From Chiloscyllium plagiosum (lineage: Eukaryota): 64,000 bases of DNA. The first letter of the stretch is position 1. Each line of letters starts with the position of its first letter. The position numbers were made by a program, and so were the translations under genes. The DNA is taken from NCBI RefSeq assembly GCF_004010195.1, contig NC_057718.1:61156233-61220232 (forward strand). The letters are read 5' to 3'. Under the pieces are notes generated by a model that made no database searches, was not told the origin of the DNA, and saw only the letters and a list, made by a program, of their open reading frames with translations. This document shows positions 4,000-59,666 of this stretch, in pieces.

Positions 4000-5216
4000 G
4001 GTCTAGTGGAGTCATGCCTGCCACGTGGGAAGACAGCTGTGGTTGTTGAAGGTCAGTCATCTTAGCTTCAGGACATCTCTGCATGAGTTCCTCAGTGTAG
4101 TGTCCTAGGTCCAATCATCTTCAGTTGCTTCATCAATGACCTTCCCTCTATCATGAGGTCAGAAGTGAGTATGTTCACTAATGATTGCACAATATTCAGC
4201 ACCTCACAATATTCCTCAGATACTGATGCAGTCTATGTTCAAATGCAACAAGATCTGGACATATCCAAGTTTGGGCTGACAAATGGCAAGTAACATTTAG
4301 GCCATACAAATGACAGATAATGACCATCACCAATAAGAGACAACCTAGCCACTGCCCCTTGACATTCAACACTGAATCCCCCGCTATCAATATCTTTGGG
4401 ATGACCATTGACAAGAAAGTCAACTGAACTCACCATATAAAAACAGCAGCTACATGAGCAGGTCAGCGACTAGAAATACTGTGGTGAGTAACTCACCTCC
4501 TGACTTCCCAAAACCTGTCCACCATCTACAAGTCACAAGTCAGATGTATAATGGTATACTTCTGACTTGCCTGGATAAATGCAGCTCCAATAACAATCAA
4601 GAAACCTGACACCATCTAGGACAAAGCAGTCCATTTGATTGGCACCTCATCCACAAGTATCCACTCCCGACACTCAGTATCAGCAGTGTGTACTATCTAT
4701 AAGATGCACTGGAAGACTTCACCAAAGATCCTCAGTCAGCACCTTTCAAATCGACAACTACTTCCATCTAGAAAGGCAAAGACAGCAGAAACATGGGAAC
4801 ATGACCGCCTACAAGCTTCCCTTCAAACCATGACTTGGAAATATATTACTGTTCCTTCACTGTTGCTGGGTCAGAATCCTGGAATTCCTTCCCTAATGGC
4901 ACTGTAGGCCTACCTACACCACAAGGATTGCAGTAGCTCAAGAAGGCAGCTCACCACCAACTTCTCAGCGATATGCAATAAATGCTGGCCCAGCCAGTGA
5001 TGCTGCATCCAAGGAGCAGGAGAATCGACGTTTCGGACATGAGCCCTTCTTCAGGAAGGGCTTATACCCGAAACATCGATTCTCCTGCTCCATGGATGCT
5101 GCCTGACCTGCTGCGCTTTTCCAGCAACACATTTTCAGCTCTGATCTCCAGCATCTGCAGACCTCACTTTCTCCTTCCAGCCAGTGATGCCCCATTCAAT
5201 GAGAGAACAAAGAAAA
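4000..5216 (+). mobile_element. 3' part of a second LINE family (CR1/L2 group), decayed
   Basis: From 4081 translates A*VPQCSVLGPIIFSCFINDLPSIMRSEVSMFTNDC (RT motifs). 3' end GCAATAAATGCTGGCCCAGCCAGTGATGCCC followed by an A-rich tail, interrupted by the insertion at 5004-5176. Confidence 0.85.
5004..5176. mobile_element. Fold-back mini PLE derivative (family A) with hammerhead-like motif
   Basis: Inverted arms, terminus CCTCACTTTCTCC. 14-bp TSD CCAGCCAGTGATGC at 4990-5003 and 5177-5190. Minus strand reads CTGAAGAAGGGCTCATGTCCGAAACGTC. Confidence 0.85.
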
Positions 5217-6014
5217 GATAGAAAGTGGTTGACTTGTCTTCAACAATAGCCCAAAAGGGCCAATAATGAATCGGTAGCACATGTTATAACCAGACTGATT
5301 TTCTCACATTTATTGAGTTGTAAAGTTTTGGAAGAAGTTATTAAAATAAAGTAATGATTTGTGAAGTGTGTCTCTGGCTGACAAACCATTGACATGTGTC
5401 TGTCTTTATTAAAGAACCTCTTTTGATGAATCCATTAATCTGTGCCCTGAATGATCTCTCATACTTCACGCTTTAAATTGGGGAGCTCACAATGTGACCT
5501 GTGAGAGTGTTGGAATTCTTTTCAAAATTACACCATACAAATATGTTTTCTACCATTTAAATGACCTTGTCAGTAATTCTAAAGTTAAATGAAAGATGGA
5601 GAAAAAAATAAATGTTGCATTAAAAGCCTTTGAATTTTTGCTTGCTGACAAAGGTCAATATTTAACTTCTTTGATATGGAATGTTATGTGCGTCTTTAAT
5701 GTTTTGAATGTCTTCACTATGATGGTGAGGAAACACTTGTTAACAATTGACCATTTACTATATAAAAAACCTTTGAGAATCTGAAACACCTCAAACCCTG
5801 GAATTTTCTTCAGGCAGGAGGTAATTATCAGACAACCATCTTACAACAAAAATAATTATCAGCAACACAATTGCTTGGCTAATCTTACTGAAGTAACACT
5901 ATTCTCAATTATTTTCCAGTAAATTACGTTCTCGAACATCTTGGTGGGTTGCATTTGTAAATGGAAGCACATCTCAGGGAATCATTTGCATATTCCTTGC
6001 AATGTTGCATTCAT

Positions 6015-7765
6015 ACAGTAATAAAGTTGTACAGCATGGAAACAGACCCTTTGGTCCAATTCATCCATGCTGACCAGACATCCTAAATTAATCAAATCCC
6101 ATTGGCCCATATCCTTTAATCCCTTCCTATGCATATACCCATCCAGATATGTTTTAAATATTGTATTGTACCATCCCCACAACTTCCTCTGGCAGGTCAT
6201 TCCATAAAGAAATTGTCCCTTAGGTCCCTTTTATATCTTTGCCCTCTCACCATGAACATATGCTCTCTCATTATGGACTCCCCCACTCCAGGGAAAAGAC
6301 CTTGTCTATATTCCCAATCCATGCCTGTCATGATTTTATAAACCTCTATAAGGTCACACCTCAGCCTTTGATGCTGCAGGGAAAACAGACCCAGCCTATT
6401 CAGCCTCTGTCTAAAGCTCACACCCTCTAACCCTAGCAACATCCTTGTAAATCTTTTCTGAACCCTTTCAAGTTTCACAGCATTATTCCGATAGGAGGGA
6501 GACCAGAATTGCACACAATATTCCTAAAGTGGCCTAACCAATGTCCTGTACAGCCACAACATGACTTCCCAACACGTGTACTCAATACTCTGACCAATAA
6601 AGGAAAGCATACCAAATGTGACCTTCACTATCCTATCTACCTGTGACTCCACCTTCAAGGAAATATGAACCTGCACTCCAAGGTCTCTTTGTTCGGCAAC
6701 ACTCCCCAAGACCTTACCATTAAGTGTATAAGTCCTGCCCTGATTTGCTATTCCAAACTGCAGCACCTCATACTTATCTAAGTTAAACTCCATCTGCCAC
6801 TCCTCAGCCCACTGGCCCATCTGATCAAGAAACTGTTGTACTCTGAAGTAACCTTTTTCGTTGTCCTCCATTTTGGTGTCATCTGCAAACTTACTAACTA
6901 TACCTTCTATGTTCACATTCAAATCATTAATATAAATGATGAAAAGCAGTGGACCCAGCATCGATCCTTGTGGCGCACTGCTAGTCACAGGCCTCCAATC
7001 TGAAAAGCAACCCTCCACCACTACCATCAGCCTTCAACCTTCAAGCCAGTTCTATGTCTAAATGGCTAGTTCTACCTGTATTCCATGTGATCTAATCTTG
7101 CTAACCGGTCTCCCATGAGGAACCTTGTTGAATGCCTTACTGAAATTCATATAGATCACGACCACTGCTCTGCCCTCATCAGTCCTCTTGTTTACTTCTT
7201 CAAAAACTCAATCAAGCTTGTGGGGCATGATTTCCCATGCACAAAGCCACGCTGACTATCCCTAGTCAGTCCTTGCCTTTCCAAATACATGTAAATCCTA
7301 TCCCTCAGGATTAGCTCCAACAACTTGTCCACAATTCCTTGGATTTTCCTTCCCACCTTACTTAAATAATGGCACCACATTAGTTAAGCTCCAGTTTTCC
7401 AGCACCTCACCTATGCCTATCGATGACACAAATATCCCAGCAAGGGGCCCAGCAATCACTTCCCAGCTTCTCACAGAATTCTAGGGTACACCTGATCAGA
7501 TCCTGGGGATTTATACACCATTATGCCCTCCTCCTCTGTATTATGGACATTTTTCAAGATGTCACCATCTATTTCCCCACTTTCTATATCTTCCATTTCC
7601 TTCTCCATGGGAAACACTAATCCAAAATACTCATTTGGTAGCTCCCCCATCTCATGCAGTTCCACACATAGGCTGCCTTGCTGATCTTTGATGGGCCCTG
7701 TTCTCTCCCTAGTTACCTTTTGTCTTTAGTGTATTTGTAAAAACCCTTTTGTGTCCTCCTTAACC
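6015..7765 (-). mobile_element. CR1-clade LINE, 5'-truncated
   Basis: ORFs 6524-7027 (APQGSMLGPLLF, SKFADDTK), 6197-6514 (ERVQKRFTRML) and 7471-7665 (KSPGSDQVYPRIL); CR1 3' UTR near 6015-6130. Confidence 0.93.
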
Positions 7766-7767
7766 CA

Positions 7768-7886
7768 AGGAGAAAGTGAGGACTGCAGCTGCTGGAGATC
7801 AGAGTCGAAGAGTGCGTCACTAGAAAAGCACAACAAGTCAGGCAGCATCCAAGGAGCAGGAGAATCAATGCTTCGGGCAAGGGCCC
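7768..7886 (-). mobile_element. Single arm of the family A PLE terminal repeat
   Basis: GGAGAAAGTGAGGACTGCAGCTGCTGGAGATCAG...GGCAGCATCCAAGGAGCAGGAGAATC; stops inside the hammerhead helix II region (TTCGGGCAAGGGCCCT). Confidence 0.8.
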
Positions 7887-8977
7887 TGCTGTGCTTCTAT
7901 TATTGGGAAATGAGCTTGTGAGTACCCAGGTTCAGTGCTGAGAACTCCAAGCTCACTTTAGGTACAAACTAAAACATCCTCAGCTCATTCAAATTAAAAC
8001 CTGTTTTGTCCTTGGGTACTTCATCGCTGAAGCTTGTTCAAGGTACTCACAAGCATTTCACAATTAATTAGCAATCAAAGTAGGAAAAGAGATAGCTAAA
8101 ATGGTTATGGCTGATAATAGTCTAGAATATACAGATGTATTCCAACCACTCCAGTCCTCAACAGCGCAGAAAACAGGAATGGTCAGACAGCAGCAGCAGG
8201 ATCGGTGCTGGGATAACCCCATCCCTGTCGATTTCAAGTCCAAAAAATATCACAGATCCTAAACAGTTCATTCCACCAGTGAGGAAAAATCAAGGGGGAG
8301 CGCAAGGTTTTAATCTGGATCGCATAAATCATGCACATTTTCTAATGGAAGTACAAGAATAAAATTAATCAAAATGCAAAGGCTCAGCACCTTGAAGGGA
8401 AAAAATAATAAAGCTGAACTGTTTACGGAGAGTTACATTGATGGTAGATAATGTGTCAACAGATGACAGGATTGGAATCTTCAGGAGCTTATTTGCAGTT
8501 AAAAGCAATCTAGGTGAACATACATTTGGTCACCACACGTAGCATGGATTGTTTACAAAGTAGATGTGAGAAATTTAGATGCTCTTTCACTTCAAGAGAT
8601 GTGCGGCACAAGCAACCTGCAAATAATTCAGCAACAAGATTACTTGGCTATTCATGCCTCTGTGGGCTACTTTCTTGCCACAATTAATCCCCCTCCTCTG
8701 CTTAGTGCACCACAATTAGACCACATTGGAAGTCAGATCTATGCAGTGGGCAGCAGAGTATAATTGTCCTAGAGACTTTGACCATGTTACATTGTGGAAT
8801 GCTCCTTGATTCTTCAAGCTACCTGAAATGCTGCTTCAAGATGTTGTCAAAGATTCTTTTTGAGCTAAAGTTCAAGAGCCTGTCTTTGATCTCCTAGAAA
8901 CTAACATTCCGTTGTTGCTATGCATAAAAAAAATGGATGCAGGGTAAATTTGCCTTAAAGTAAAGCATTCTGACGAC

Positions 8978-14116: not shown

Positions 14117-14135
14117 AAATAACCAAGGGTCAACT

Positions 14136-14529
14136 GAAAACAAAAAATGCTGGAGATCACAATGGATCAGGCAGCATCCTACTGGATTGTCTTCATTCTC
14201 TGTCACCATGTCCTCTCTCCCCTTCCCCCAACCCAGTGGGACTGTTCTTCCTAGTCTGGCATTTAGACACACCATTTTTCTGCCATTCTCATATTCTGAT
14301 CAATTAATCTAAACTATCAACATCCTTTCTCGCTCAGCACTCCAACGCCTTCCCCCCACTATTGCAAAAATGTGGTTCCCTCCACGTTTGACTTTAGCTC
14401 TGATGAAGAGTAATGTAAACTTGAAACATTAGCTTGCTTTTTCTCTGTGGATGCTGCCAGGTCTGCTGTGATCTCCAGCATTTTTTGTTTTCTGTTCAGA
14501 CTTCAGCATCAGCAGTAATTTGCTCCTAC
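14136..14529 (+). mobile_element. PLE terminal repeat with inverted 5' arm (family C)
   Basis: GAAAACAAAAAATGCTGGAGATCAC at 14136 is the reverse complement of 14468-14492; pyrimidine-rich 3' UTR; hammerhead-like motif at 14397-14433. Confidence 0.75.
14397..14433 (+). ncRNA. Degenerate minimal hammerhead-ribozyme-like motif
   Basis: GCT-CTGATGA-A-GAG(TAATGTAAA)CTT-GAAA-CATT-AGC, with helix I GCT/AGC. Confidence 0.6.
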
Positions 14530-14719: not shown

Positions 14720-15660
14720 TGTCACTATTTTAACTAGCTTGTAACAAGCTTTTCCCAGTCTCTAATTTCAATGATACCAGGCTTCAAGAAAAGCTTCAGA
14801 GTGTCCTTGCAACATTTTCTTTTTTCTTCTCTGGATTGCTAGCTATTTGAGGCTTGAACAAGGAGGACTTAAATCAGGTCGGCAGATTTCCGCCATCCAG
14901 CTACAGTGTCCAGTCCATTTCACCAGTTTTGTAAGTGCTTTGCCTAAATGCAATGGATCTGGGTTCAAGAAGTAATTATCGTTTGTTTGACCATTCTCCA
15001 ATTGAATCTAGAGACCCTACTGGAGACACGGTTGCTGTAATCCCTGTAGCACTCTTTTGTGTCATTGATACACAGCCCAGATCTCAATGCAGTGCAGGGG
15101 TGAGGCAATAACAACTGCTCTGTACACGAGCTCCTTTATTAATCAAGTCTTTGTTGTCAAAGACTCATTGCTGTAGTTTGCAGGAGGATAGCTGGCCCAA
15201 CTGATTTAGTGATATCTTTATCTATGGTGGCCTTTTGTGTACCTAAGAATGGGAAGTATGCAACATATTCTAGAGTTTTTCCTTCAACAGTTGGCTGAGC
15301 AGCTCTAGATTCATACATTAGTTTATTTTGACAACATTCAAGGCCAGACTGAGTCTCTTATTCACAGAATTGAAGAGATCAAGATTATCATGTAAATCTG
15401 GAGCTGAGTGGATAATAACTCTACAGTCATCTGCATCTCACATATGTCTATGATGGTCAGTTTAGTTTTGGCATAGAAGCAACTAAGTCTTCTATTTTAT
15501 TCTATTCTATTTCTAGGAGTTTTCTATTTTGACAGTACTAAATAATGACATCAGAAGGCAATTGATATTTGATGAGGTGAACAACCTCTGCCAGGAGTAT
15601 TATAAACAATAAGGGAGCAATCACATAGCATTACTTGACACAGATGTGGATTTTGAAGAT
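14720..15660 (-). mobile_element. RTE-clade LINE remnant, 3' half of RT
   Basis: Minus strand reads IFKIHICVK*CYVIAPLLFII (GVKQGCVIAP motif), then KTLEYVAYFPFLG..KATIDKDI and LVYRAVVI. Confidence 0.75.
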
Positions 15661-16300
15661 AAAAACAGAAATTGCTGGAAAATCTCAGCCAGTCTGGCAG
15701 CATCCGTGGAAAGAAATCAGAGTTAACATTTTAAATCTAGTGAAGAAATATGACTGGACCCAAAACATTAACCCTGCTTTCTCTCCATAGATCGCTCCCT
15801 TATTATTTATAATACACCAAGTAGAGGTTGTTCACCTCATCAAATATCAATTGCTTCGGGCCTAGTGACCTTTCTTCACAGGGTTCGAAATTAGATTAGA
15901 TTAGATTAGATTAGATTAGATTAGATTAGATTAGATTACTTACAGTGTGGAAACAGGCCCTTCAGCCCAACAAGTCCACACCGCCCCGCCAAAGCACAAC
16001 TCACCCATACTCCTACATTTACCCCTCACCTAACACTACGGGCAATTTAGCATGGCCAATTCACCTGACCTGCACATCTTTGGACTGTGGGAGGAAACCG
16101 GAGGAAACCCACGCAGACACGGGGAGAATGTGCAAACTCCACACAGTCAGCCGCCTGAGGCGGGAATTGAACCCGGGTCTCTGGCGCTGTGTCATGGTGA
16201 AATGTTAACTCTGATTTCTTTCCACAGATGCTGCCAGACCTGCTGAGATTTTCTAGCCATTTCTATTTTTGTTTCAGATTTCCAGCATTCGCAGTTCTTT
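15661..16300. mobile_element. Fold-back PLE derivative (family B) containing captured flank DNA and an HE1 SINE
   Basis: Left arm AAAAACAGAAATTGCTGGAAAATCTCAGCCAGTCTGGCAGCATC..GAGTTAACATTT is the inverse of about 16200-16272; hammerhead-like debris at 15740-15775 and 15855-15890. Confidence 0.75.
15891..16191 (-). mobile_element. HE1-type SINE, 5'-truncated, with (TCTAA)9 tail
   Basis: Close reverse complement of 60177-60513; (TTAGA)9 at 15891-15935. Confidence 0.92.
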
Positions 16301-16319
16301 GAGGGGTTTTTTTTGCCTC

Positions 16320-17190
16320 AGATTTTGACAGTGTCAGTTTCAGCTTTCCTGCTCAAGACAGTCCAGTAATGTGACTGTGAATTCACAGCGATAACTGATA
16401 CCCTCTCTAGTAAACTGTGGTAGAAACCAGGATGGAGCTGTATCAAGTCCCCAAGTGCATGAAAATCAGCAAATCCTGAGCCCTGATGGTACTGCTTCAA
16501 AGGAGCTGAGCTTTTGCTCATATCAAGACTTGATGCACTCATCACATGGATTTGGAAGGAATGCAAAATTGTGACTACCTTCATGAAATGAGATGGAAAT
16601 GATCAAGGTATTACCCTGCTCTCTAAAACAGCGAAAATCCTGACAGTCTCCTGAATCACCTACTTCCTATTGCTGAGGAAACCCTTCCAGTGACACAAAG
16701 TAACTTTAGACCTTCAGAAGGAACATTTAACATTGGCTTTTGATGGCAGACAAATCCAGGAAAACTGTTGAAAACAACACCTGGAACCTTTCATTGCCTT
16801 CATCAAGCATCTGCCCAAAGCATTTAACTTGGGTGCATATTGAAGACCTGTGGATTGTTGTCAGGAAATTTTGATGTCCAATAAACAGCAACGCAATCCT
16901 GCAACTGCTGCACGATGTCAAAAGCGTGGTGCTGAAAAAGCACAGCTAGTCAGGCATCATCCAAGGAGCAGGAGAATGGATGTTTCAGGCATAAGCTCGT
17001 CATCATTCCTGATGAAGGGCTTACACGCGAAATGTCGATTCTCCTACTCCTCGGGTGCTGCCTGACTGGCTGTGCTTTTCCAGCACCACACTCTTTGACT
17101 CTGATCTCCAGTATCTGCAGTCCTCACTTTCTCCCACTGCTGCACGGTAATTTAATTACAAGTGTCTTGAGTGGAGGATCAAAAGAAGTA
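16320..17190 (+). mobile_element. RTE-clade LINE remnant, 5' half of RT (inverted relative to 14720-15660)
   Basis: Fragments read SRLDALITWIWKE, GITLLSKTAKIL, NHLLPIAEETLP, ARQIQENC, LPKAFN and ILQLLH|GNLITSVLSGGSKE. Confidence 0.75.
16915..17135. mobile_element. Fold-back mini PLE derivative (family A)
   Basis: 11-bp TSD ACTGCTGCACG at 16904-16914 and 17136-17146; CTGATGAAGGGCTTACACGCGAAATGTC at 17009-17036. Confidence 0.87.
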
Positions 17191-19272: not shown

Positions 19273-19960
19273 ATAAAGTCATGGTGTCATAAGGTTGTAC
19301 AGCCCTGAAACAGACCCTACGGTCCAACTCATCCATGCTGACCAGATATTCTAAATTAATCTAGTCCCATTTGCCAGTTGTCTCCTGCTGTATAACTCTA
19401 TGACTACAAGTCATTCATTCCACAAACAAACCACCCTCTCTGTAAAAGATTTGCCCCACCCCTTTTTAAAATCCCTCTTCTCTCATCTTAAAACTCTGTC
19501 CCTTATTCTTGAAATCCCCCATCCTAGGGGAAAAAAACATGAACCCTATCACTGTGGAACACTGCTGGTGACAGGTCTCCCATCTGAAAAGCAACCCTCT
19601 CCCACCACTCTCTGTCTCCTGCTGTTACGCCAATTATGTACAGTCAGTTCTTCTATAACCCAATGGTTGCGTTCTTGTACAACCCTGCGTTATAGAAAAA
19701 TTACGCTTTAGAAGCAGCACTTAAAGTGTTGCTGCTGTAATCGCATTACAGCCAACATACATTTTAGAAACAGCGTCCCTAATTTGTCAATCATGTCACA
19801 GTGAATTCACATTGACAAAACAAGAACTACTTGTAACAGAACTACCTGTATCAAAAATGGCAAGCTCACTCTGAATCCCCTATCTTTACTAATTATTCCA
19901 TCATGTGGAACCTTGTCTGAGGCTTTACTAAAATCCGAAGGCGTTTGGTATGCTTTCCTA
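19273..19960 (-). mobile_element. Scrambled CR1 fragments
   Basis: CR1 3' UTR at 19273-19378, short opposite-strand pieces, and an RT segment at 19545-19935 split by the MITE. Confidence 0.75.
19641..19848. mobile_element. MITE, Tc1/mariner-pogo type
   Basis: TA at 19639-19640 and 19849-19850; imperfect TIRs CAGTCAGTTCTTCTATAA versus CAGGTAGTTCTGTTACAA (13 of 18 identical); removing it restores contiguous CR1 sequence. Confidence 0.75.
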
Positions 19961-19964
19961 GGAG

Positions 19965-20035
19965 GGTCGACATTTTGAGCATAAGCTCTTCATCAGGAAT
20001 CATCTTCCTGATGAAGAGCTTATATTTGAATCATC
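19965..20035. mobile_element. Minimal fold-back PLE core (two opposed hammerhead-like halves)
   Basis: ATAAGCTCTTCATCAGGAA-TCATC-TTCCTGATGAAGAGCTTAT forms a perfect 19-bp hairpin. Confidence 0.75.
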
Positions 20036-20039: not shown

Positions 20040-23000
20040 CTATATCTTTATCCTAATATCTTAAACCCATGATGCCTCATGCCAGTCAATCCTGCCCTGG
20101 AGAAAAGTCTCTGGCTACTGACTCTATCTATGCCTCTCATTACCTTGCATACCTCGATCAGGTCACTTATCTTCCTCCTTCTCTCCAGAGAGAAAAGGTC
20201 AAGCTTAGTCAACCTCTCCTCATAAGACATGCCCCTCCAGTCCAGGCAGCATCCTGGTAAACCTTCTTTGCACCCTCTCCAAAGACTCTGTAGTTTTCCT
20301 ATAGTAGGGCGACCAGAACTGGACACAATATTCCAAGTGTGGTCTCACCAGCGACTTGTAGAGCTGTAGCAAAACCTCGTGGCTCTTAAACTCGATTCCC
20401 CTGTTAATGAAACCCTATCCACTTGGGTGGCAACTTTGAGGGACCTATGCATTTGAACACCAGGATCACTTTGTTCCTCCACATTGCCAAGAATCTTGTC
20501 TTTAATCCTATATTCAGCATTCAAGTTCAACCTTCCAAAATGCATCACTTCATATTTATCCAGGTTGAACTCCATCTGCCATTTCTCAGCCCAGCTCTGC
20601 ATCTTGTCTATGTCGAGCTGCAGCCTGCAATAGCCCTCAATAGTATCAACGGCACTTCCAAACTTTGTGTCGTCTACAAATTTACTAATCCACCCCTCAA
20701 TCTCCAAGTCATTTATAAAAACTACAAAAAAAGCAGAGGCCCAAGATCAGAGCCTTGCAGGACACCACTCAACACTGACCTCCAGGCAGAATACTTGCCA
20801 TCTACAACTACTCTCTGCCTTCTTTCAGCCAACTAATTCTGAATCTCGGATAGCCAAATTTCCCTGTATCCCATACCTCCTGACTTTATGAATAAGCCTA
20901 CCATGGGGAACCTTATCAAATGCCTTGCAGAAGTCCATATATGCCACATCTACTGATCGAACTTCATTGACCTATCTTGTAACCTCCTCGAAGAATTCAA
21001 TAAGATTAATTAGGCATGATCTTCCCCTCATAAAGCCATGCTGACTGCCTTTAATCATGCTATGCTTTTCCAAATAGTCACAAATCCTATCTCTCAGAAT
21101 TCTTTCCAAACCTTGCTGACCACAGATGTAAGACTGACTGGTCTGTAATTGCCAGGGATTTCCTTATTACCTTTCTTGAAAAGAGGAGCAACATTTGCCT
21201 CCTTCCAATCCTCCAGTACTCCCCTGGAGAATAGGGAGCCGAAGATCTTTGCCAGCGGCTTAGCAACCTCCTTTCTCACTTCCCAGAGCAACCTAGTATA
21301 AATCTGGTCTGGCCCTGGGGACTTATCAATCTTAATGTTTGCCAAAATTTCCAGCACATCAACTTCATCAATCTTGATCTGTTCAAGACTGTAATGACCT
21401 TCCAAGCCTATATCCCAGCTTTTCAAAGTTCTCATTCGCAATAAGATCCCTTTCCTTAGTGAAAACTGAGGCAAAAAAACCTCATTTAGGGCTTCCTCTG
21501 TCTGCTCAGACTCCACGCACAAGCTCCCTATGCTATCCCTGATTGGCCCTACTTCTCCCTGATCATTCTCCTATTCTTCACACTTGAGTAAAATGTCTTT
21601 GGGTTCTCCCTAATTCTTCCTGCCTAGCCTTTCTCATGTCCCCTCCTGGCTCTCCTCAGTCCATTTCTGAGCTCCTTTCTAGCAAGCCTGTAATCCTTTA
21701 AAGCTGTGCTAGGACCTTACTTCTGCCACCTTACATAAGCTGTCTTCTTCTTTTTGACGAGAAGCTCCTCTGTTCTCGTCATCCAAGCCTCCTTAATCTT
21801 ACCCCTTCTTACCTGTCTCAGAGGAACAAATTCATGCATCACTCACAACAACTGCTCCTTAAACACAGTCTCCACATGTCTGCTGTGCCCTTTCTGTGGA
21901 ATAATTGCTCCCAGTCTGTACTTCCCAACTCCTATCTGATAGTGTCATAATTTCCTTTTCCCCAATTAACTATCTTCCCATGGTGACTGCTCCTTTTCCT
22001 CTCCAAGGCTATGGTAAATGTGAGGAGAAAGTGAGGTCTGCAGATGCTGGAGATCAGAGATGGAAATGTGTTGCTGGAAAAGCGCAGCAGGTCAGGCAGC
22101 ATCTAGGGAACAGGAGAATCGACGTTTCGGGCTTCTTCAGGAAGGGCTAATGCCCGAAACGTCGATTCTCCTGTTCCCTAGAAGCTGTCTGACCTGCTGC
22201 GCTTTTCCAGCAACACATTTCCATCTATGGTAAATGTGAGGCATTTGTGATCACTGTCACCAAAGTGTTCTCCCACCGTGACATCTGACACCTGTCCTGG
22301 CTCATTGCCGAACACAAAATGGCCTCTCCCTCATCGGCATGTCCACATACTGAGTAAGGAAACTCTCCTGAACACACCTGACAAAAACAGCTCCATCCGA
22401 ACCATCTGCACTAAGGAGGTTCTAGTCAATAATGGGAAAGTTGAAGTTACCCATAACAACAACTCTGCCACATTTGCATTTTTCCAAAATCTGCCAGCTT
22501 ATCAGTTCTTCAATCTCCCTACTACTATTTAGGGGTCTGTAGAAAACCCCCAATGAGTTGGCTGCTCCCTTGCTGTTCCTAACTTTCACCCATACTGACT
22601 CAGTAGGCAAACCTTCCTCAACAACCTTCATTTCTATAGCTGTGATGCATACTTTGATTATCAATGCTACACCCCCTCCTATTTTTCCACCCTCCCTGTC
22701 CTTTTTAAACATTCTAAACTCTGGAACATCTAGCAACCATTCCTGTGCCTGTAATACCCACGTCTCCGTTATGGCCACAACATCATAGCTCCAAGTACTG
22801 ATCCATGCTGTAGGTTCATCACTCTTATTTCTGACACTCCCTGCATTAAAGCAGACACACTTTAACTGATCCCTTTGTTTCATCACGTGAGAAACCTTCC
22901 CAATAGATTCACTACATTCCTGTCACTGCCCCATCCACAACTACCCCCATTCCCCCAGGTATGTAGCTCTGGTTCCCATCCCCTTGCCAAACTCGTTTAA

Positions 23001-24310: not shown

Positions 24311-24752
24311 AAAATCTGTTTTTATTTCAGGCTTCCAGCTTCTGCAGTAGTCTGTTTTCTGATGGATATTCTCAACAGCGTCCTTTTCTGTCAAAGACAC
24401 TATGACCCTGTAAAAGGGGACTTGCAAAAAAGTAAAAACTAAGCTTGCTATAATTCAGTGACGAACCCTGATTAACTCTACGATTCCATAAGCACTGAGC
24501 CTGGGTCATGTGTAGATGTGAGAAAAGGTCTCAGAGATGTTTGTACATAGATTGCAGATCAAGAAGCATTGCTAGCACTGCTCTCATCCCTAGTTCAGGT
24601 TTCCCTCTCCCCTCTAGACAGTAAGTGCCGACTCTCAAAATTGACTCCAAAAACACAGTAATATAAAACAAAGAACTGTGAATGCCAAAAATCTGAAACA
24701 AAATCAGAAATTGCTGGAGAAATTCAGCAGGTCTGGCAGAATCTGTGGAGAG

Positions 24753-38840: not shown

Positions 38841-39143
38841 CTCCTATTAGATTTTAGTATTGTCCCAGATTCTGCAACTGGGATGGAGGGAGCCTGCTGG
38901 TTCTAGAAGTTTCATTGGACAACCCTGAGGATGCTTGCATCTGGAAAAGCAAGTAGATGCTCCTTGGCTTCAACTTCCAATGGAGCGAAGAGGCAGAGTA
39001 CAGGTGAAGGGCCCAGCCACCTCTCAAGTGTCCTGAGGGGACATTTCTAAGGGCGTTATGTGTGGTTCCTCCTCTACCTGGCAGCCTCCTGGCAATGCCC
39101 TCTCTCCTTGAGAAGAAGGGGCAGGTTTCCTTTGGTCTGAAGC

Positions 39144-42232: not shown

Positions 42233-43449
42233 TCCGGTGATAATTTACAGGCTGATATTTACTACAAACCCATCGACCTCAATAAGTACCTGCACTATAC
42301 CTCCTCCCACCCCGTACTCTGCAAAACCTTCATCCCGTTTTCCCAATTCCTCCACCTCCGATTGCATCTGTTCTAACCAGAAGTCCACTCACAAGCATCT
42401 CAGATGTCCACTCATTTTAAATAACGTGCTTTTCCCCCTCTGTCATCCAGACAGCCCTTCTCCGCACTTCCACCATTCCCCGCTCCACTGGTCTAAGACC
42501 CAGCCCTAAAACATAATAAAGACAGAGTCGCCCTTGTCCTCACTTTCCACCCCACCAGTCTACGCATTCAACATATCAACCTTAAACATTTCTGCCAACT
42601 CTAACTAGACCCCATCACCAAGAATATCTTCCCCTCCCCATCCCTCTCTGCCTTCCACAACGACCGTTCCATTCGCCATTCCTTGGTTCGCACCAATTTC
42701 CCTACTAATCCTCCCCGGACCCCAATACCTTCCCTGCAACCGAAAAAGTTGCAAACCTTCCGGCACACAACACATCTCACCTCCATCCAGGCCCCCAAAC
42801 AGTCCTTCCAGGTGAGACAGAGGTTCACCTGGCTCTTCTCCAACCTAGTTTACTGTATCCAGTGCTCCCGATGTGGTCTTCTCTACATCGGGGAGACGAA
42901 ATATAAACTTAAGGAATGGTTCACTGAGCATTTTAGCTGGGCACGTAAAGATCAATCCTCCCGGTCACTGCGCATTTCAGTTCCCCTTCCCACTCTCTCT
43001 CTGACATGTCCATCCTTGGTCTCTTTCTTTGCCACAGTGAATCAGATCACAAATTGGAGGAACATCACTCATCTTGAGCCTGGGCAGCCTATAACCAAGA
43101 GGATGCAACATTGAGTTTTCCAATTTCAAATAACCTTCCCAACCATACCCCGTCTCCCTTCCCAGCCACTCCCTGCCATCCCTCTTATGACTCCTCCTTC
43201 CAGCTACCAACCAGATTAATTTTTCCTATCGACCAAACAGATCATACCCACCACCTGTATTCATGCATCACTAACTCAGCACTCTGTCCCTCTCCCCATC
43301 CATAATGCTTCCTCCCCCTCTTTTTATCTGCAGCTTCCTTTACCCCCACCTCCAATCCTGAAGAAGGGTTATACCCGAAACATTGACTTCTCCACGTCCG
43401 GATGTTGTCTGTCTAGCTGTGATTTTTTAGCCTCATGTTTGTCTATTTT
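42233..43449 (+). mobile_element. Penelope-like element, 5'-truncated (RT C-terminus, GIY-YIG, terminal repeat with hammerhead motif)
   Basis: DIYYKP..YLHYTSSHP; NLVYCIQCSRCGLLYIGETK; CTGAAGAAGGGTTATACCCGAAACATT at 43358-43384; 9-bp TSD AGAAGCCTC at 42224-42232 and 43450-43458. Confidence 0.92.
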
Positions 43450-46400
43450 AGAAGCCTCCATATCAGCAGGTTGCTGGTAACTGAGGCCGCATTGGGCTGA
43501 CCTCTTCACCCCATCCAGATTTGTGATCAGAGAAGGGAAGATTTAAGAGGGATGTAAGATTGGGCCTGCTGCCGCTCTCTGGAATTCAAGAATCTGTTCC
43601 TCCAAACTTCATCTGAAGATAATTTAGTTTAAAAATAATATTGCTGTATTAGCACTTTGTAGATAGATATGCTTCAGCAAAACTTGCAAGGCACATGTTC
43701 TGCCTAGTCCTAACCAACTTAGGACAGCTTTCCTAACTGAGGCATTGGGCCTCATATTAACATAGGAAAGAGCATAACGTTTGCTTTAGATACCTGCAAA
43801 ACATATCCTAAGTAGAGTGAAATTGTGATGAGTTGATTCACAGGGGATGTGCCTACAAATTTGTGTGAAGTACATCTTCAAAGCTATCCAAGCAGGTCCT
43901 TATGTATTCCAATTTGCCTTCAATTGCATTGTGGGTCAACAAAAACAAATGACAATCCAATCAAGGATTAAATATTGAAAAATGTGTTTATTTCCAATTT
44001 TTTCACACCTTAAAATCAAAATCCACTCTATTTTTCTTTCTGGCTGCATGGACATTCAAGATCCATGCTCAATGGTGACTTCCAGAATGGGAAGTCCATA
44101 TCATGATCAGTGTGCCAACGCCAGTAGCCATGCGGGGAATCTTGGAGAGGCTCCATACATATATAGCCTTACAGTACAGAGGAACTATCGCTTAAGATGG
44201 TCTGCAGTAAAATACATTGAAAAATGTTGTAAGTTGCATCCAGAAAAGCTCAATAATCTCTTTTGTCTGTGAACACATTGTATTTAGATGACTGTGATAC
44301 AGTCTGCTACATCGTCAATGCAGTCAAACATGTTTTCTGTGTTTTTGAGATGCCATGCAAAATCACAGAACATCACTGCAGACTTTGTGGCTTCAGGAGG
44401 GGAGCAAGTGGGCTTTCATAGGGCTGTCCAGGGTCATTGGCTTCCATAGGCCGCTCAGTTGACCAAACTTTGCCTTCAATTGCCTTATCCATCAGTTCCA
44501 TTTTCTGAGCAGTGTCTGGTGTTGTCCACACTGACATAAGTCTCCATGGTTACCTTTTCTGGAAATTCTATGCTGCTCTCCTACAGGTGAGCTTTATCAT
44601 CAAAATGGTTAATCTTATCCTGCCCCTCCTTGCTCGAACTATATGGTCTTAGTCCACTTTGAATATTCATTCATGGTGAGATCTTGATGTCAAATTTGTC
44701 ACATCAGTGATGATAGACCAAATTTCAATGTTCATCAGTAAATTCTGGGTCTTTTATAGACTTAAATGGCTGATAAAAAGGAAAGACATTAGTTTAAAAA
44801 TGGTCTCAGTGATCACCTGACCACAAGTTCAGCTAAGCTCAAGGGAATCAATACAGAATAGTCATCTGACCTGAAATTAACACAACTATTAAAAGATACT
44901 GGAAAAACTTGCATTTCTTACTTTTACTCTGCACCTAGATGTTTCACATTTTGGAGACTAAAGACCTGCCAGCCTCCTGCTTGTCTACCTGCAATTATTC
45001 AGCTTGGAAATAGTGACACCAGAGATGGAAGTGCATGAATGAGCTGTATTTCAAATGGTTTTAGTAGAGGAGAGGAGATGGAACTACAGAAATTCTCTTT
45101 TTGCTTTCACTCAGAAAGGCCAAATCAAAAAATGAAACCACAAATTGGCCCCATGCCACCAGAGAATGCCCACTAAAGTCATCTGTGGTAAGGCTTCACA
45201 ACAGTCAGCAGATTTCCCCAAGCTCAGCTGTTGCTGCCCAGCTGGTACCCAGGTGGAGCGTAAGGAACTAAAGTTACTTTGGATTTCAAACCATTTGTAA
45301 GGCATGGAAATGTAAATAACTGCAACATAACTTTCTTCATTCTAGTAGTCTTATGCAATTTGTTTATACTTCTAATAATTTTGCATTCCCTACAAGAATG
45401 TCTGCAGGCAATAACCATTCTAGATACTCCTGTTAGTTTCAGGAACAGTGTTGCAGAGGACATTAATATTCTTACACACACGTTACATCTAGAAGCAGGA
45501 AACCTTCTAGGAAGTGGGGACATAAGCTAGATGGTATCATCCCTCTATATCTCTGTGCTGGGTGAATGTCTATTACAAAACAAAGGTTTATCTGATACAA
45601 ACATGGACCCCTCATCAACCCGCAGAACTCCATCCTAGTGGTCTTGCCGTCAAATTGAACAAATGGTTATTGGTGCAAAGGGAACAAAGAAATGTGCAAT
45701 ATATGACCTGTGGAGCAACCTAACATTTCACTGTTTTAAACAATCAGTCCCTTAAAGGTATTAAGTATTATGCATTTCAACTGGCTATTACTTCTAAGCG
45801 TTCATGCAAGGTCATTACTTCTCAAACCTGACTACCAGTAATCTCTTATGGCCCTGTCTTCCAACTGTCCTGAATTCCCCAGCATCAACATTGATTTTCT
45901 CAACATCTTCAAGAGACATCACTTCCTCCTAATGCTAATGGTTGCAAACCTGCCTGCAGGAGGTGGCAGATGTAGGTTATAGTTTCTCTAGTCATGTGAA
46001 TACATCATCTGGGCTGATGTTCACTCATCTGGAGGTAACTGGAACCCCTACTGCATGTCGGTCCCCTGTAGACTGCTTTACACTGCTAAAGATCTGGTTT
46101 TGATCTTCACGCATTGCCTGTTTATCCACAAATGAGTCCCCTGAGCCTGACATCTCTGATCCTGTTGTTGTTGCTCTTCCCTTTGTCTCCTCCTTCTTCT
46201 TTTTCATCGTCATCTCATCAACTCCAAACACAGCTGCTGGGCTTGGTGGCGCCAACAATTGGCATGGAAGTACTGATCTATGGTGAAAGAGCCTGAATGC
46301 AATGCATGCTCTGCAATATTTGGCATCTCCACAGTCAATGGCAACTTTGGGACCATATCAAACTGTTCATGTCATGTGTAAAAGCTTCCCCTATGGTCAC

Positions 46401-52741: not shown

Positions 52742-53785
52742 AAGATAGAGGGTGATGGTGGAGGGTTGCTTTTCAAACTGAAGGACTGTGATCAGTGGTG
52801 TGCCAAAAGGATTGGTGCTGAGTCCACTGCTTTTTGTCATTAGTATACATAATTTGGATGTAAACATAGGAAGTATGGTTAATAGGTTTACAGATGACAC
52901 CAAAATTGGAGGTTTGGTGGACAGCGAAGAAGGTTACCTTAGATTACAATGCGATCTTGATCAGATGGGCTAATGGACCATGGAGTGGCAAGTGGTGTTT
53001 AATTTAGATAAGTGTGAGTTGCTGCATTTTGAAAAGGCAAATGAGAACAGGACTTGTACACTTAATGGTCAGGTCCTGGGGAGTATTGTAGAATAATGAG
53101 ACCTTGGAATACAGGTTCATAGCTCCTTGTAAGTGAATTCACAAGTAGATTGGATAACAAAGAAGGCGCTTGGTATGCTTTCCTTTATTGGTTAGAGCAT
53201 TGAGCATAGGAATTCAGAGGTCATGTTGCGGCTGCATCGGATATTGGTTAGGAAACTTTTGGAATATTGTGTGCAATCCTGATCTCCCTCCTATTGGAAA
53301 GATGTTGTGAAACTTGGAAGTGTTCAGAAATGATTTCCAGGATAGTGTCAAGATTGGAGGGTTTGAGCCAAAGGGAGAGACTGAATAGGTTGGGGCTATT
53401 CAGAGTGAGAGTGAGAGATTTATAAAATCATGAGGGACATAGACAGGGTAAGTGCACAAGGTCTTTTCTGTGGGATGGGGGCATCCAGAACTAGAGGACA
53501 TAGGTTTAAGATGTGAGGGGAAAATTTTAAAAAGGACCGAAGGAGCAACTTTTTGATACAGACAGTGGTGCATGTATGGGGAAGTGCCAGGGGAAGTGGT
53601 GGAGGCAGGTATAATTGCAACATTTAGAAGGCATCTGAATGGGTATATAAATAGGAATGGTTTGGAGGGATATGAGTCTAGTGTTAGCAAGTGGGACAAG
53701 ATTAATTTAGGGTATCTAGTCGGCATGAACGAGTTGGGCCAAAGAGTCTGTTTCCATGCTGTATCTCTATGACTCTATGACTCTG
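52742..53785 (+). mobile_element. CR1 inserted in CR1
   Basis: SGVPKGLVLSPLLF, RFTDDTK; (GACTCTAT)n tail; TAACTG duplicated at 52736-52741 and 53786-53791. Confidence 0.9.
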
Positions 53786-53950
53786 TAACTGTGAGGTATT
53801 GCATTTTTGTAAAACAAACAAGGGCAGGACTTAGACAATTAATTGTAAGATCCTGGGTAGTGTTGTAGAACAGATAGACCTAAGGGTTTGAAATTTGCAT
53901 TGCAGGCAGACAGGGTAATTAAGAAGGTATTTAGCACACTTGCCTTCATT

Positions 53951-54598
53951 AAAGAGATGTACAGCATGGAAACAGACCCTTCGGTCCAACCCATCCAGGC
54001 CAACCAGATATCCCAACCCAATCTAATCCCACCTGCCTGCACCCGGCCCATAACCCTCCTAACCCTTCCTATTCATATACCCATCCAAATGCCTCTTAAA
54101 TGTTGCAGTTGTACCAGCTTCCACCACTTCCTCTGGCAGCTCATTCCATACATATACTACTCTCTGTGTGAAAAAGTTGCCCTGCAGGTCTCTTTTATAT
54201 CTTTGCCATCTCACCCTAAACCTATGCCTTCTAGTTCTGGACTCCCCAACCGCAGGGTAAAGACTTTGTCTATTTACCCTATCCATGCCCCTCATAATTT
54301 TGTAAACCTCTACAAGGTCACCCCTCAGCCTCTGATGCTCCAGGGAAAACATCCCCAGCCTGTTCAGCCTCTCCCTATAGCTCAAATCCTCAAACCCTGG
54401 CAACATCCTTGTAAATCTTTTCTGAATCCTTTCAAGTTTCACAACATCTTTCCGATAGGAAGGAGACCAGAATTGCACACAATATTCCAACAGTGGCCTA
54501 ACTAATGTCCTGTACAGCTGCAACATGACCTCCCAACTCCTGTACTCAATACTCTGACCAATAAAGGAAAGCATACCAAACGCCTTCTTCACTATCCT
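53951..54598 (-). mobile_element. Relatively young CR1 3' fragment inserted in CR1
   Basis: Uninterrupted 177-aa ORF 54059-54592 (LVRPLLEYCVQFWSP...RLRGDLVEVYKIM). Confidence 0.93.
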
Positions 54599-55144
54599 AT
54601 TATTGAGATCTTTTGAGTATAGGAGTTAGGACTTCATGTTGAGGTTGTACAGGATGTTGGTGAGGCCTTTTCGAGAGTACTGTGTGCAGGTCTGGTCGCC
54701 CTGCTATAGGAATGATATTAAACTGGAGAGGGTTCAGAAATGATTTACCAGGAATGGATGGTTTGAGTTTAAAAAATAGGCTCGAAAGACCGGAATGCTG
54801 CCTGACCTGCTGTGCATCTCCAGCACCACTGACGAACACCTACTGCCTCCACCAGCTCTGAGACCCACCTCGGTAAGCTCTTTTGCTAAGTAGACTTGGG
54901 AGCACAATCTAGAGAGCACAGCACTGACACACCACTGCAATTGGTCAAGGAAGAAGCGCCCCAGGTCACTGACATGCAAATGACTACCAGAGTCCAGGCA
55001 ACTGCTCTGCTCAGACAGAGATCCTGCCTTTGTTGTCAGCCTTTAACACCCTTGTCAAATAGCACGGAGAGTCTCAGACACAGCAGCAGGTCAATCAGAG
55101 GTATTTGATAAACTGGATTAAAGGGTGGAGGTGACCATAAATGT

Positions 55145-56333
55145 GGCGAAAGTGAGGGCTGCAGATTCTGGAGATTAGAATCAAGATTAGAGTGGTGCTG
55201 GAGATGCACAGCAGGTCAGGCAGCATCTGAGGAGCAGGAAAATCGACGTTGCAGCCCTCATCAGGAATGAGGCTGGAAACNNNNNNNNNNNNNNNNNNNN
55301 NNNNNNNNNNNNNNNNNNNNNNNNNNNNTAAAGTCCACATTGATGCCCTGGGGTTGAAGGATTCTGATGCGGATGATGAGGTGTTCTTCCTCCAGGCATT
55401 GATTGGTGAGGGAGTGGCGATGGAGGAGGCCCAGGACCTGCAGGTCCTGGGCAGAGTGGGAGGGGGAATTGAAATGTTTGGCCATGAGGCGGTGGGGTTG
55501 ATTGGTGCAAGGTGTCACAGAGATGTTCCCTAAAGCGCTCTGCAAGAAGGCGGCCAATCTCCCCAATATAAAGGAGACCGCATTGGGAGCAACGGATGCA
55601 ATAAATGACATTTGTGAAAGAGCAGGTGAAACTTTGATGGATGTGGAAGGCTCCTTTGGGGCCTTGGACAGAGGTGAGGGGAGAGGTGTGAACACAGGTT
55701 TTGCAATTCCTGCAGTAGCAGGGGAAGGTGCCAGGAGGGTAAGGTTGGTTGTTGGGAGAGGCGGACCTGACCAGGTAATCATGGAGGGAACAGTCTTTGT
55801 GGCAAGTGGATAGGGGTGGGGAGGGAAATATATCCCTGGTGGTGAGGTCCGTTTGTAGGTGGTGGAAATGTCAGCAGTTGATGCAGTTCGTGCGGAAGTT
55901 GGTGGGATGGAAGGTGAGGACCAGTGGGGTTCTGTCCTCGAGAAAGAAGAAGAACACCTCATCTTCTGCCTCAGAACCCTTCAACCCCAGGGTATTAATG
56001 TGGACTTCACCAGTTTCCTCATTTCCCCTCCCCCTACCTTACACCAGTTCCAAACTTACAGCTCAGCACCGTCCTCATGACCTGTCCCATCTGACAATCT
56101 TCCTTCCCAACTATCCGTTCCACCTTCTTCTCCAACCTATCACCTTCACCCCTTCTTTCATCCACCTATTACACTCCCAGATACCTTCTCCCGAGCCCCA
56201 CACCCTCCCATTTATCTCTCCACCCCGAGGCTTCCAGCCCCATTCCTGATGAAGGGCTCCTGCGTAAAATGTCGATTTTCCTGCTCCTCAGATGTTGCCT
56301 GACCTACTGTGCATCTCCAGCACTAGTCTAATT
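55145..56333 (-). mobile_element. Penelope-like element, 5'-truncated, with inverted terminal repeat (family A-like)
   Basis: Minus strand FTCSFTNVIYCIRCSQCGLLYIGEIGRLLA (GIY-YIG); 55945-56333 is an inverted copy of the 3' end; TSD GT(G/C)ACCATAAATGT at 55131-55144 and 56334-56347. Confidence 0.92.
55281..55328. other. Assembly gap (48 N)
   Basis: Run of n characters inside one arm of the PLE inverted repeat. Confidence 0.99.
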
Positions 56334-56987
56334 GTCACCATAAATGTTATCAGTACAGTGCTGGCTCTGGCTGCATATGTCCAGCTGTCTCCATGAACAG
56401 GTTAGTTAGCCAGACATGGTCAGTCTCAATATCAAGGCGATAGAGACTAAGGGACTTTGACTTCAATCCCAATATTCCTTCCTCTCATGGAGGCAGGGTG
56501 GTGTCAGCAGAAACCCATTGGAAGGAGGACTGACATACAGGGCTCCCAGAAGCTTTGCCCCAGGACATTCCAGAGGTGCATGGCACCTCCACCATCTGCC
56601 TGCCTGTGCTGAGAAATGCAGTAGCAGTTAAAGTTGAGGTGGGTGATCCTATATCCAGGCAGGAGACTCTGAGCCAACCCTATTATCTACAATTACCCCC
56701 ATCACAGAGAAAACATGGACCTTCCAATGCCCAAGGCACCTAAGCTTGATCACTCAAGTCTTTGCAGCGACTGGGGTCCCTCTACACCAGCTGAAGATTT
56801 CCGAACTGTGCAGTGGGAGGCAAAGGATGAAGAAAAAGTACTGAGGGCACTTAGGTGGCATGGGGAAAATGGCATTGTAAATGAGGTATATGTTTAACTT
56901 ACACTGTTAAAAATGTTTTAATTTTGTTGTCAGACCGGGTTAAGTAACACACATGTGAGAGATGAACAACTCCTTCAGACATCCCAA

Positions 56988-58069: not shown

Positions 58070-58755
58070 GTTAGAATTAGGGGTGCAGGTGTATAGTTCC
58101 TTGAAAATGGCATCACAAGATGAAGAAGTCATTCAACACGCTTGCCTTCATTGGTCAGAAGAGTGACTGTAGGAGGAGATGTTATGTTGCAGCTGAACAG
58201 GACATTGATGAGGCCATTTTTGGCATACTGTGTACAATTTTGGTTACCCTTCTCTAGGTTGTTTAACCTGAAAGGGTGCAGAAAAGATTTACAGGGATGT
58301 TGCAGGGACTGGAAGATTTGAGTTATAGGGAGAGGTTGAATAGGCTGGGGCTTTTTTTCCTGGAGTGTCCGAGGCTGAGGGGTGACTATTCAGAGGTTTA
58401 TATAATCATGAGGGGCATGGATAGGGTAAATAGTCAAGGCCTTTTTCCTTGTGTGGAGGAATCCAAAACAAGAGGGCATAGGCTTAAGGTGAGAAGAGAA
58501 AGATTTATAAGGGACCTGAGGGTCAACATTTTCATGCAGAGGGTGATCTTGACGGGAATGAACTGGCAGAGTGTAGATGGGTCCAATGACAACATTTAAA
58601 AGGCATCTGAATAGGAAGGGTTGAGAGGGATATGGGCCAAATAATGACAAATGGGATGTCTAGTCGGATTCAGATTGGGATGTCTAGTCGGTGCAGACAA
58701 GTTGAACGAAAGGGTCTGTTTCCGTGCTGAATGACTCTATAACTATATGACTCTA
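58070..58755 (+). mobile_element. CR1 3' fragment
   Basis: ORF 58276-58599 (QKRFTGML..RLRGD); GACTCTAT-type tail. Confidence 0.9.
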
Positions 58756-58769
58756 AAGTCCAAACATAG

Positions 58770-59090
58770 CTCATTAATTTTGAAAGCAGGTTTCAATTAG
58801 ATTCTTTCTGGCCTCCTGGGCTCAACAATACATTATTCTCTCATGACCTGTTAGATGGTTGCCTTCATCAATATCTTGAACCATTGCCTCATTTTCATCC
58901 TCAGAAATTTGTTGTCATTACCCCCATCTTCTTTGGATCCAGGACATTCTCCTCTTTCTTGGCTCCAGTTGGGAAGGGCACAGTGTTCCTTCGTAATGTA
59001 CTACAGGCATTGAAACCTCATGTGAAGGAAGCCAATGATCTGCTCCACCTGTACCTGAGCTTGAAAAGCAGAAAAGATTGTCAAAAATGC
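58770..59090 (-). mobile_element. Harbinger transposase C-terminal remnant
   Basis: VEQIIGFLHMRFQCL (cf. IExxxGxLKxRFRCL), an acidic stretch, then EARKNLIETCF. Confidence 0.65.
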
Positions 59091-59507
59091 CAGCAATGTC
59101 ATTAATCAGTGAGCCAGCACCAACAGCATTACTAACAAGAGATGTAACATCACAGGACCAACACCAGTGACACATTATTAGTGACATCTAGCATGACACC
59201 TACAACATGAGGAGCAAGAGGCACAACACTGCCCACTCAACTTACCAATTCACCTCTCAGAGCAATGAATGCCAAATCCACAATGCATAAGATGGAGATA
59301 CAACATCCAACTAACAATGCAAAATGTGAATAATGTTTCTCTGAGATGAGAAAACAAAATAGAATCCAATCGACTTGTAAAGGCCAACCGTTAATTTTGA
59401 GGAAGGTCGTATGGCGCAGTGTGTAGTAATGCTGCCTTTAAACTGGGAAGCTCAGTTTTCTGACCCATGCCACTCCTGATGGCCACACAAGGTGCATTCA
59501 AAATGAG

Positions 59508-59666
59508 GAGAAAGTGAGGTCTGCAGATGCTGGAGATCAAAGTTGAAACTTTATTGCTGGAACAGCACAGCAGGTCAGATGAAGAAGGGCCTGTGCCCGA
59601 AACGTCGAATCTCCTGTTCCCTGGATGCTGCCTGACCTGCTGTGCTGTTCCAGCAATAAAGTTTCA
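59508..59666. mobile_element. Fold-back mini PLE derivative (family A)
   Basis: 14-bp duplication GCATTCAAAATGAG at 59494-59507 and 59667-59680; TGAAGAAGGGCCTGTGCCCGAAACGTC begins the right arm. Confidence 0.9.

Follow-up and report, generated by a model that had tools for sequence, protein, structure and literature searches.

Shark fold-back insertions built from the terminal repeat of a Penelope-like element

A 64,000-nucleotide (nt) stretch of the Chiloscyllium plagiosum genome (contig NC_057718.1, positions 61,156,233–61,220,232; hereafter the window) contains a family of short fold-back insertions derived from the terminal repeat of a Penelope-like element (PLE). These elements are a shark family in the shortest form of a known PLE insertion pattern, whose layout has already been published for flies, rotifers and other clades, and in most respects they are ordinary. 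The less ordinary feature of the family is a cluster of arm 5′ ends at the upstream edge of a hammerhead motif. The elements are probably separate, dead-on-arrival PLE insertions, in which both target-site nicks prime cDNAs that stop early and are joined head to head.

Architecture and origin

The initial annotation of the window had reported six fold-backs, and all six lie where it placed them, each flanked by an exact target-site duplication (TSD) of 11–18 nt (Table 1). Alignments show, as it had proposed, two opposed, unequal arms of one ~130-nt sequence in each element. A search of the window for fold-backs and arm matches adds two decayed members, at 7768–7893 and 19960–20023, and a 36-nt piece at 54795. 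Seven of the nine fold-backs are bounded as whole units by a TSD, six exactly and one with a mismatch; at 7768–7893 and 19960–20023 a TSD was sought and none was found. By way of a chance control, an exact repeat of at least 11 nt occurred at both ends of 1 in 3000 random element-sized positions. Open reading frame (ORF) sequence is absent from eight of the nine, and arm lengths form a continuum that reaches the 1.2-kb copy at 55145–56333. Altogether the family occupies 2874 bp, or 4.5%, of the window.

The 1.2-kb copy ties the family to its source. The arm is contiguous in sequence with the GIY-YIG-bearing part of this element, of which it is the terminal repeat, and 55145–55939 reads linker Cys motif, GIY-YIG, 3′ untranslated region (UTR) and tailed arm. 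It is no coding copy, but a longer fold-back holding a frameshifted C-terminal ORF fragment only, together with a 48-N gap. Its GIY-YIG match in Pfam is weak (E 0.0066, below the curated cut-off) and the copy itself has no reverse transcriptase (RT) domain. A 486-aa protein assigned to Chiloscyllium punctatum shares 77% identity with the fragment. This protein matches RT and GIY-YIG weakly, and at E ≤ 1e-20 its relatives number 778, from sharks, rays and invertebrates. A zinc-finger-like Cys motif precedes the endonuclease (EN) in 89 of the 95 homologues with an EN motif, and is visible in the 55145 fragment and in protein P0001. Such a motif between RT and EN marks Neptune and Nematis (PMC8557442), and the source PLE is provisionally placed as Neptune-like. 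The arms correspond to the hammerhead-motif end of an RT/GIY-YIG PLE with shark homologues, which bears out the earlier view that the elements descend from a PLE and not from a DNA transposon. A miniature inverted-repeat transposable element (MITE) of class II was also rejected on structure: the arms are unequal and the TSD varies between 11 and 18 nt, as against equal terminal inverted repeats and a short TSD of fixed length.

Several side observations concern the same sequences. Two ray proteins, P0006 (named a divergent kinase-domain isoform) and P0013 (a chitinase-domain isoform), consist mostly of RT–EN sequence of this PLE, likely through annotation read-through or exonisation. The motif just 5′ of the fixed arm end resembles an ORF-internal stretch coding PLVLTFH (at 42530 and ~55925), and the long arm of 55145 starts ~15–20 nt upstream of that stretch; either may be due to chance. 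The 36-nt arm piece at 54795–54830 is 100% identical to 55191–55226 on the opposite strand, whereas the two arms of 55145 are only 88% alike. This may reflect a templated patch, or an artefact of the assembly close to the N gap.

Read on the ORF strand, the arm first shows one helix I strand and CTGANGA; after a single extra base come a 4-bp stem II, GAAA and a short palindrome, and then the second helix I strand, which ~90 nt separate from the fixed end. At the level of the motif the arm appears to fit the minimal type I hammerhead of metazoan PLEs, with which it shares CTGANGA, the extra base, a stem II that opens with G–C, GAAA, a palindromic helix III stub and a short helix I; the shark stem II has 4 bp, and most shark copies are decayed or cut (PMC4209133). 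A loose hammerhead descriptor matches nine places in the window, of which six belong to this family or to its older relative; over 20 shuffles the range was 0–2. At the Rfam gathering score there were zero matches, covariation of the motif across 19 arms did not rise above shuffles (stem II is 84.6% paired), and isolated arms folded no better than shuffles. Stem II carries deletions in two arms, and a complete hammerhead with helix I occurs in none of the five short fold-backs.

Table 1. Members of the fold-back family, an older relative and arm features; all positions are those of the window
Feature	Coordinates	Strand	TSD	Arms, apex and remarks
Fold-back 5004–5176	4990–5190	+	14 nt (4990–5003, 5177–5190)	Inverted short arm 5004–5057; long arm with tail 5055–5175; apex microhomology 3 nt (5055–5057)
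Fold-back 16915–17135	16904–17146	+	11 nt	Older subfamily; inverted short arm 16915–17005; long arm 17003–17134; apex microhomology 3 nt
Fold-back 22026–22224	22009–22241	−	17 nt	Long arm ~22024–22143 (− strand; stem II deletion of 8 nt); short arm 22141–22224
Fold-back 24753–24952	24737–24968	−	16 nt	Lies in an arm of a PLE-like sister family; long arm ~24751–24868; short arm 24866–24952, hammerhead core and stem II intact, helix I 5′ strand missing
Fold-back 59508–59666	59494–59680	−	14 nt	Long arm just 72 nt (59506–59578); filler 1 nt; short arm 59580–59666, extends further 5′ than the long arm
Element 38334–38840	38316–38858	+	18 nt	No ORF; canonical layout of one inverted and two direct pseudo-long terminal repeats (pLTRs); inverted arm 38334–38432, filler 11 nt, direct arm 38444–38580, spacer ~135 nt, second direct arm 38716–38840
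Longer fold-back 55145–56333	55131–56347	−	14 nt, one mismatch	48-N gap; − strand 55145–55939, 5′-truncated, frameshifted PLE end; inverted copy ~55946–56333
Decayed fold-back	7768–7893	−		Long arm and 12-nt inverted stub; apex microhomology 3 nt
Apex remnant of fold-back	19960–20023	.		Both arms end at hammerhead upstream edge; filler 4 nt
Older related PLE copy	42224–43458	+	9 nt	Direct only, 5′-truncated; ends at the tail-less site
Tail	17101–17134	+		33–34 nt, bounded by the two putative 3′ start sites; positions of the 16915 copy
Minimal type I hammerhead motif	17005–17040	+		Decayed in the 16915 copy; best-kept core at 24867; motif match only

The spacer of the 38334 element (38581–38715) gave no convincing match against 120 PLE-like proteins (best E 0.09), and its reading as the start of an ORF is unsupported.

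Arm ends and apex junctions

Numbered so that the first base of helix I is +1, the 5′ ends of the long and short arms lie at +10/+2 (5004), −2/+6 (16915), +2/+10 (22026), ~+12/+4 (24753) and +58/+6 (59508); elsewhere they lie at −7/−7 and +1 (38334), +1/+2 (19960), +12/+62 (7768) and ~+49 (54795), and both arms of 55145 begin several hundred nt upstream of +1. The ends of the 5004 long arm and the 22026 short arm were re-read by eye, the aligner having crossed the apex. Fifteen of the 20 ends fall within a 25-nt window from −10 to +14, three between +15 and +100 and two far upstream. Arms within one element are not independent; counted by element, eight of the nine fold-backs have at least one arm ending in the −10 to +14 interval. 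The initial annotation's "extreme truncation products" was right in kind, but the truncation points are non-random and pile up at the upstream edge of the hammerhead.

Since the cluster lies ~20–40 nt upstream of the predicted cleavage site, cutting by the ribozyme does not explain it. For the second direct arm of 38334 the start is +1 itself, on the helix I strand, where an initiator-like motif lies. The cDNAs may stop there because the RNA begins at this point, or because RT stalls at a folded or protein-bound motif. A start at helix I is not general in PLEs, since the start site of Drosophila Penelope precedes a 75-nt intron by 46 nt (PMC2377424), and the end of that intron maps to helix I (PMC4209133). 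A 3′ splice site upstream of helix I, suggested by a pyrimidine run followed by CAG, is not favoured as the cause of the cluster: the apexes have no upstream exon in common, and the site is crossed by one arm of 38334. In public sequence data aligned to the arm, no position at which many molecules begin or end was seen among the rows listed; the one RNA run has a single-cell poly(A) library, a type unsuited to 5′ mapping.

At the other side of the arms, the initial annotation had described one fixed and one variable end. The fixed end stands, but the second is not freely variable: the short arms fall short of the fixed end by 33, 36, 37, 37, 39 and 40 nt in six of seven elements, and by 74 nt in 5004. 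It is a second preferred end, and the interval between the two is the known PLE tail of 30–40 bp, an extension often found at one end only (PMC8557442). In a rotifer element the tail is 31 bp, next to an inverted pLTR and within a 9-bp TSD (PMC3846280).

The same two ends recur far beyond the window. When the 133-nt arm (17003–17135) was aligned at 80% identity to contigs from public DNA runs of three species, 53,406, 57,285 and 43,845 contigs touched it, figures that are not copy numbers. Among the rows listed, 1866, 1378 and 1147 records of the respective species break into mixed sequence behind 17134, and 444, 421 + 391 and 427 + 355 have loose ends behind 17094–95, ~10 nt further continuing in the element; 681 further loose-end rows lie beyond those listed. 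Joints that return by 33–34 nt, from 17131–17134 to 17099–17101, occur in contigs of all three species (3 + 11 + 4 contigs in run X1), among the 15 joints listed of 63, to which all statements on joints here refer. The joint positions 17069 and 17094 are approximate, as the reference copy carries private mismatches (17024–27, 17067–68 and 17095–96), and depth gradients along the arm were left unused because they track these mismatches and edge effects.

At the apexes, the earlier statement that each junction differs does not hold. A 16-mer at 5046 is repeated exactly at 22132, so 5004 and 22026 share a junction, and they do so in mirror-swapped form: the arm reaching +2 is tail-less in 5004 and tailed in 22026, and the arm variants differ. 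The remaining seven apexes are all distinct. Five of the nine apexes show 3 nt of microhomology and the other four contain fillers of 1, 4, ~6 and 11 nt; two of the fillers resemble sequence in the vicinity. Random arm pairs have at least 3 nt of microhomology in 3.6–5.7% of cases, and the probability of five in nine is ~6e-5 to 6e-6. Variants private to an element are common to its partner arms in 22026, 59508 and 55145, and the nearest neighbour is the partner in nine of the 15 arms that have one; these kinships argue that different source lineages each made fold-backs. Moreover, the tail-less arm extends further 5′ than the tailed arm in three of the seven TSD-bounded elements (5004, 24753 and 59508).

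How the fold-backs may have formed

In the mechanism we regard as probable, the RT/GIY-YIG protein of a full-length Neptune-like PLE would act on the element's own RNA. Its endonuclease would nick the two target strands 11–18 nt apart, and both 3′ ends would prime RT inside the pLTR, at a start site that coincides with the fixed end in one case and lies ~33–40 nt upstream in the other, so that a single arm carries the tail. The two cDNAs would then stop early, mostly at the upstream edge of the hammerhead, owing to an RNA 5′ end or a structural stop. Union of the two head to head through microhomology or filler-type end joining, followed by fill-in, would yield the fold-back and its TSD. We infer for this family the start-site behaviour described in vitro below, the joining of two cDNAs and the reason for the stop. 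Two start sites are supported by the direct-only older copy at 42224–43458, which has a TSD and also ends at the tail-less site, an equivalence judged by eye.

The mirror-swapped junction fits this account: a copied unit would keep its orientation, and either form would result if two cDNAs met at a hot spot of microhomology. Independent formation at insertion, which the initial annotation had favoured, is thus supported, although not for its reason that all apexes differ. On its proposed check for junction recurrence, a single, mirror-swapped junction is shared among the nine fold-backs of the window, and recurrent joint classes occur among the joints listed from the wider contigs.

A more specific version, put forward tentatively and on balance doubtful, is a strong-stop-like step in PLE integration. 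RNA would begin at helix I, a dimeric RT–endonuclease would prime both nicks ~95 and 130 nt downstream, and the cDNAs would run off the template; two joined run-off cDNAs would give a short fold-back, and a template jump at this point would give pLTRs and partial tandems (compare 38334).

Several points count against separate insertions joined from two cDNAs. Only nine fold-backs are readable in full. Microhomologies were called by eye and that of 24753 needs a 1-nt deletion; with four of nine the probability becomes ~1e-3 to 2e-4. The nearest neighbour lies in another element for six of the 15 partnered arms (5004, one of 16915 and all of 38334). Asymmetric apexes could stem from later central deletion in a once-perfect palindrome. 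The in vitro precedent, Poseidon, comes from another clade (PMC11167929), and Arkhipova et al. (2013) favour self-priming on an antisense template (PMC3846280). Finally, apex-type joints from 17004/17005 to ~17069 recur in 13, 15 and 9 contigs, and tail-to-tail joints, which link 17094 to 17134 with the two sides on opposite strands, in 40, 22 and 14 contigs of the three species. The latter, which set the tail-less end against the fixed end, could represent tandem multimers of the fold-back or, alternatively, insertions that landed in older arms. Near-symmetric apexes are not among the joints listed, and contigs are broken by fold-back apexes.

The self-priming account of rotifer palindromic junctions (Arkhipova et al., 2013; PMC3846280) would apply here if one cDNA, or an antisense RNA, snapped back at the apex and was copied into the second arm, with later central deletions reshaping the junction. 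Young arms are indeed nearly identical within an element (74/76, 73/77 and 35/35), and a fold-back of 3 nt around a 5-nt loop would be expected to give the junction common to 5004 and 22026. A copy cannot exceed its template, however, and because the tail-less arm reaches further 5′ in three of seven elements, self-copying of one cDNA does not suffice unless a deletion is added each time. It also leaves unexplained that the second arm and direct-only copies end at one and the same site, as well as the fillers at four of the nine apexes. We consider it rather unlikely. Post-insertional collapse, whereby long inverted PLE insertions lost their centres through palindrome instability, would account for microhomology at the junctions, which deletions also produce, and could draw on the longer fold-back at 55145 and the two arms with stem-II deletions. 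Such deletions are not expected to stop in one 25-nt window in 15 of 20 arms; in 38334 the direct junction begins precisely with the helix I strand, and young elements, with arms 95–100% identical, are already short. It is the hardest of these accounts to credit, and we give it very little weight.

Improbable, too, is a non-autonomous fold-back family, SINE- or retrozyme-like, that is mobilised in trans as a unit and inherits its apexes. The 16-nt apex found in two of nine elements speaks for it, as do the recurrent joint classes and tail-to-tail joints in three species. Rotifer pLTRs suffice for mobilisation in trans (PMC3846280), and non-autonomous PLE derivatives exist (PMC8557442; bioRxiv 10.64898/2026.07.22.740005). 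Against this, the recurrent apex is mirror-swapped on differing arm variants, the other seven are all distinct, and tandem head-to-tail fold-back units do not occur in the window. A ribozyme-bearing version, as the initial annotation had considered, finds no support in the window, where all five short fold-backs lack a complete hammerhead with helix I. The arms of these five would moreover pair (−83 to −156 kcal/mol), burying both motif and start sites in the hairpin. The recurrent joints listed are also few beside the 1866 fixed-end records of X1 that run into mixed flanks, though a unit-like minority may exist.

Known relatives, neighbouring repeats and significance

Published insertion units of EN+ PLEs share with the shark elements a head-to-head inverted copy, a tail on one arm, a TSD around the whole unit and an inverted arm of variable size (PMC8557442, PMC3846280, PMC2377424), and their "one inverted and two direct pLTRs" layout is that of 38334. 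Tail lengths are similar: 33–40 nt in the shark, 31 bp in rotifer Pen2a and a 34-bp repeat in Penelope. The shark unit differs in being pared down to the pLTR (160–220 bp), in that such stumps dominate, eight of nine being free of ORF sequence, in its longer TSDs (11–18 as against 8–10 bp in rotifers) and in its 5′ ends clustered at the hammerhead edge. With the architecture already published, novelty is lower than the initial annotation implied. In the open literature, supplements aside (which may show such stumps), no report of shark PLE fold-back stumps or of 5′-end clustering was found.

The closest biochemical precedent is the Poseidon element PAc of Anolis carolinensis, in which, in vitro, two internal RT start sites lie one tail length apart and both strands are nicked and extended by the protein (Frangieh et al., 2024; PMC11167929). 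The hammerhead lies upstream of the start sites and is dispensable for insertion. Poseidon belongs to another clade, and PAc primes without homology, with a preference for AT-rich targets; in the shark, four of the seven fixed ends have a 2–6-nt match between target and template, and TSD composition is mixed. The main text of that paper does not describe fold-back products.

Non-long terminal repeat (non-LTR) retrozymes, reported in one cartilaginous fish, are likewise ORF-less, derived from PLE pLTRs and equipped with a type I hammerhead, but stand in head-to-tail tandems with a complete ribozyme per unit (bioRxiv 10.64898/2026.07.22.740005). The shark elements were rejected as such retrozymes: their units are head to head, and their motifs incomplete. 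In Schistosoma, dual hammerhead motifs ~100–700 bp apart on opposite strands and without an ORF have been ascribed to truncated PLEs (PMC4209133); the opposite-strand arrangement is the same, and TSD, tail and apex are analysed only for the shark elements here.

Twin priming of LINE-1 offers another parallel: both target strands prime, the inverted junction shows microhomology and the TSD is kept. There the inverted part comes from a different, upstream portion of the RNA, whereas the shark arms copy one region from start sites 33–40 nt apart. A search of the open literature turned up no PLE paper on twin priming.

Other repeats of the window have related designs. A second PLE-like family at 14126–14520 has an inverted short arm (14132–14179), a direct long arm with pyrimidine-rich UTR, a hammerhead motif at 14400 and an apparent tail; a TSD was sought there and none was found. 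At 15558–16328, a complex fold-back of a third PLE-like family (arms 15661–15731 and 16200–16270) encloses its own left flank again, as an inverted copy of 65 nt (15558–15622 against 15790–15854) and a SINE-like repeat with an ATTAG run; the meaning of its 8-nt flanking repeat is uncertain. Within 24660–25010, the 24753 element sits inside a single sister-family arm, whose 5′ end, judged by eye, is also near a hammerhead-like core. Other repeats form close inverted pairs: LINE-like fragments (53149–54600; 77% over 649 nt) and SINE-like copies (60206–61306; 83% over 309 nt). Pattern scans for further loci returned zero matches in metagenome contigs, viral contigs and prokaryote genomes.

In the RNA run, 2,160 of 12,955,460 reads carry the arm, and 95% of these continue into other sequence. 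Examined for A-to-I editing against DNA runs that are not from the same individual, A>G places number 17 in RNA versus 6–9 and T>C places 26 versus 11–12; other mismatches are also raised in RNA (C>G 13 versus 1–4; T>A 14 versus 2–6).

The origin of the tandem and inverted structures of PLEs has been described as unresolved (PMC8557442), and the abundance of this family makes its start sites, stop sites and junctions countable at scale. The clustered 5′ stops and the mirror-swapped junction are useful clues to the PLE mechanism. To automated annotation, the stumps resemble MITEs or microRNA-like hairpins, and host transcripts carry them. If a strong-stop-like step were indeed part of PLE integration, tens of thousands of shark copies would make that integration testable from sequence alone.

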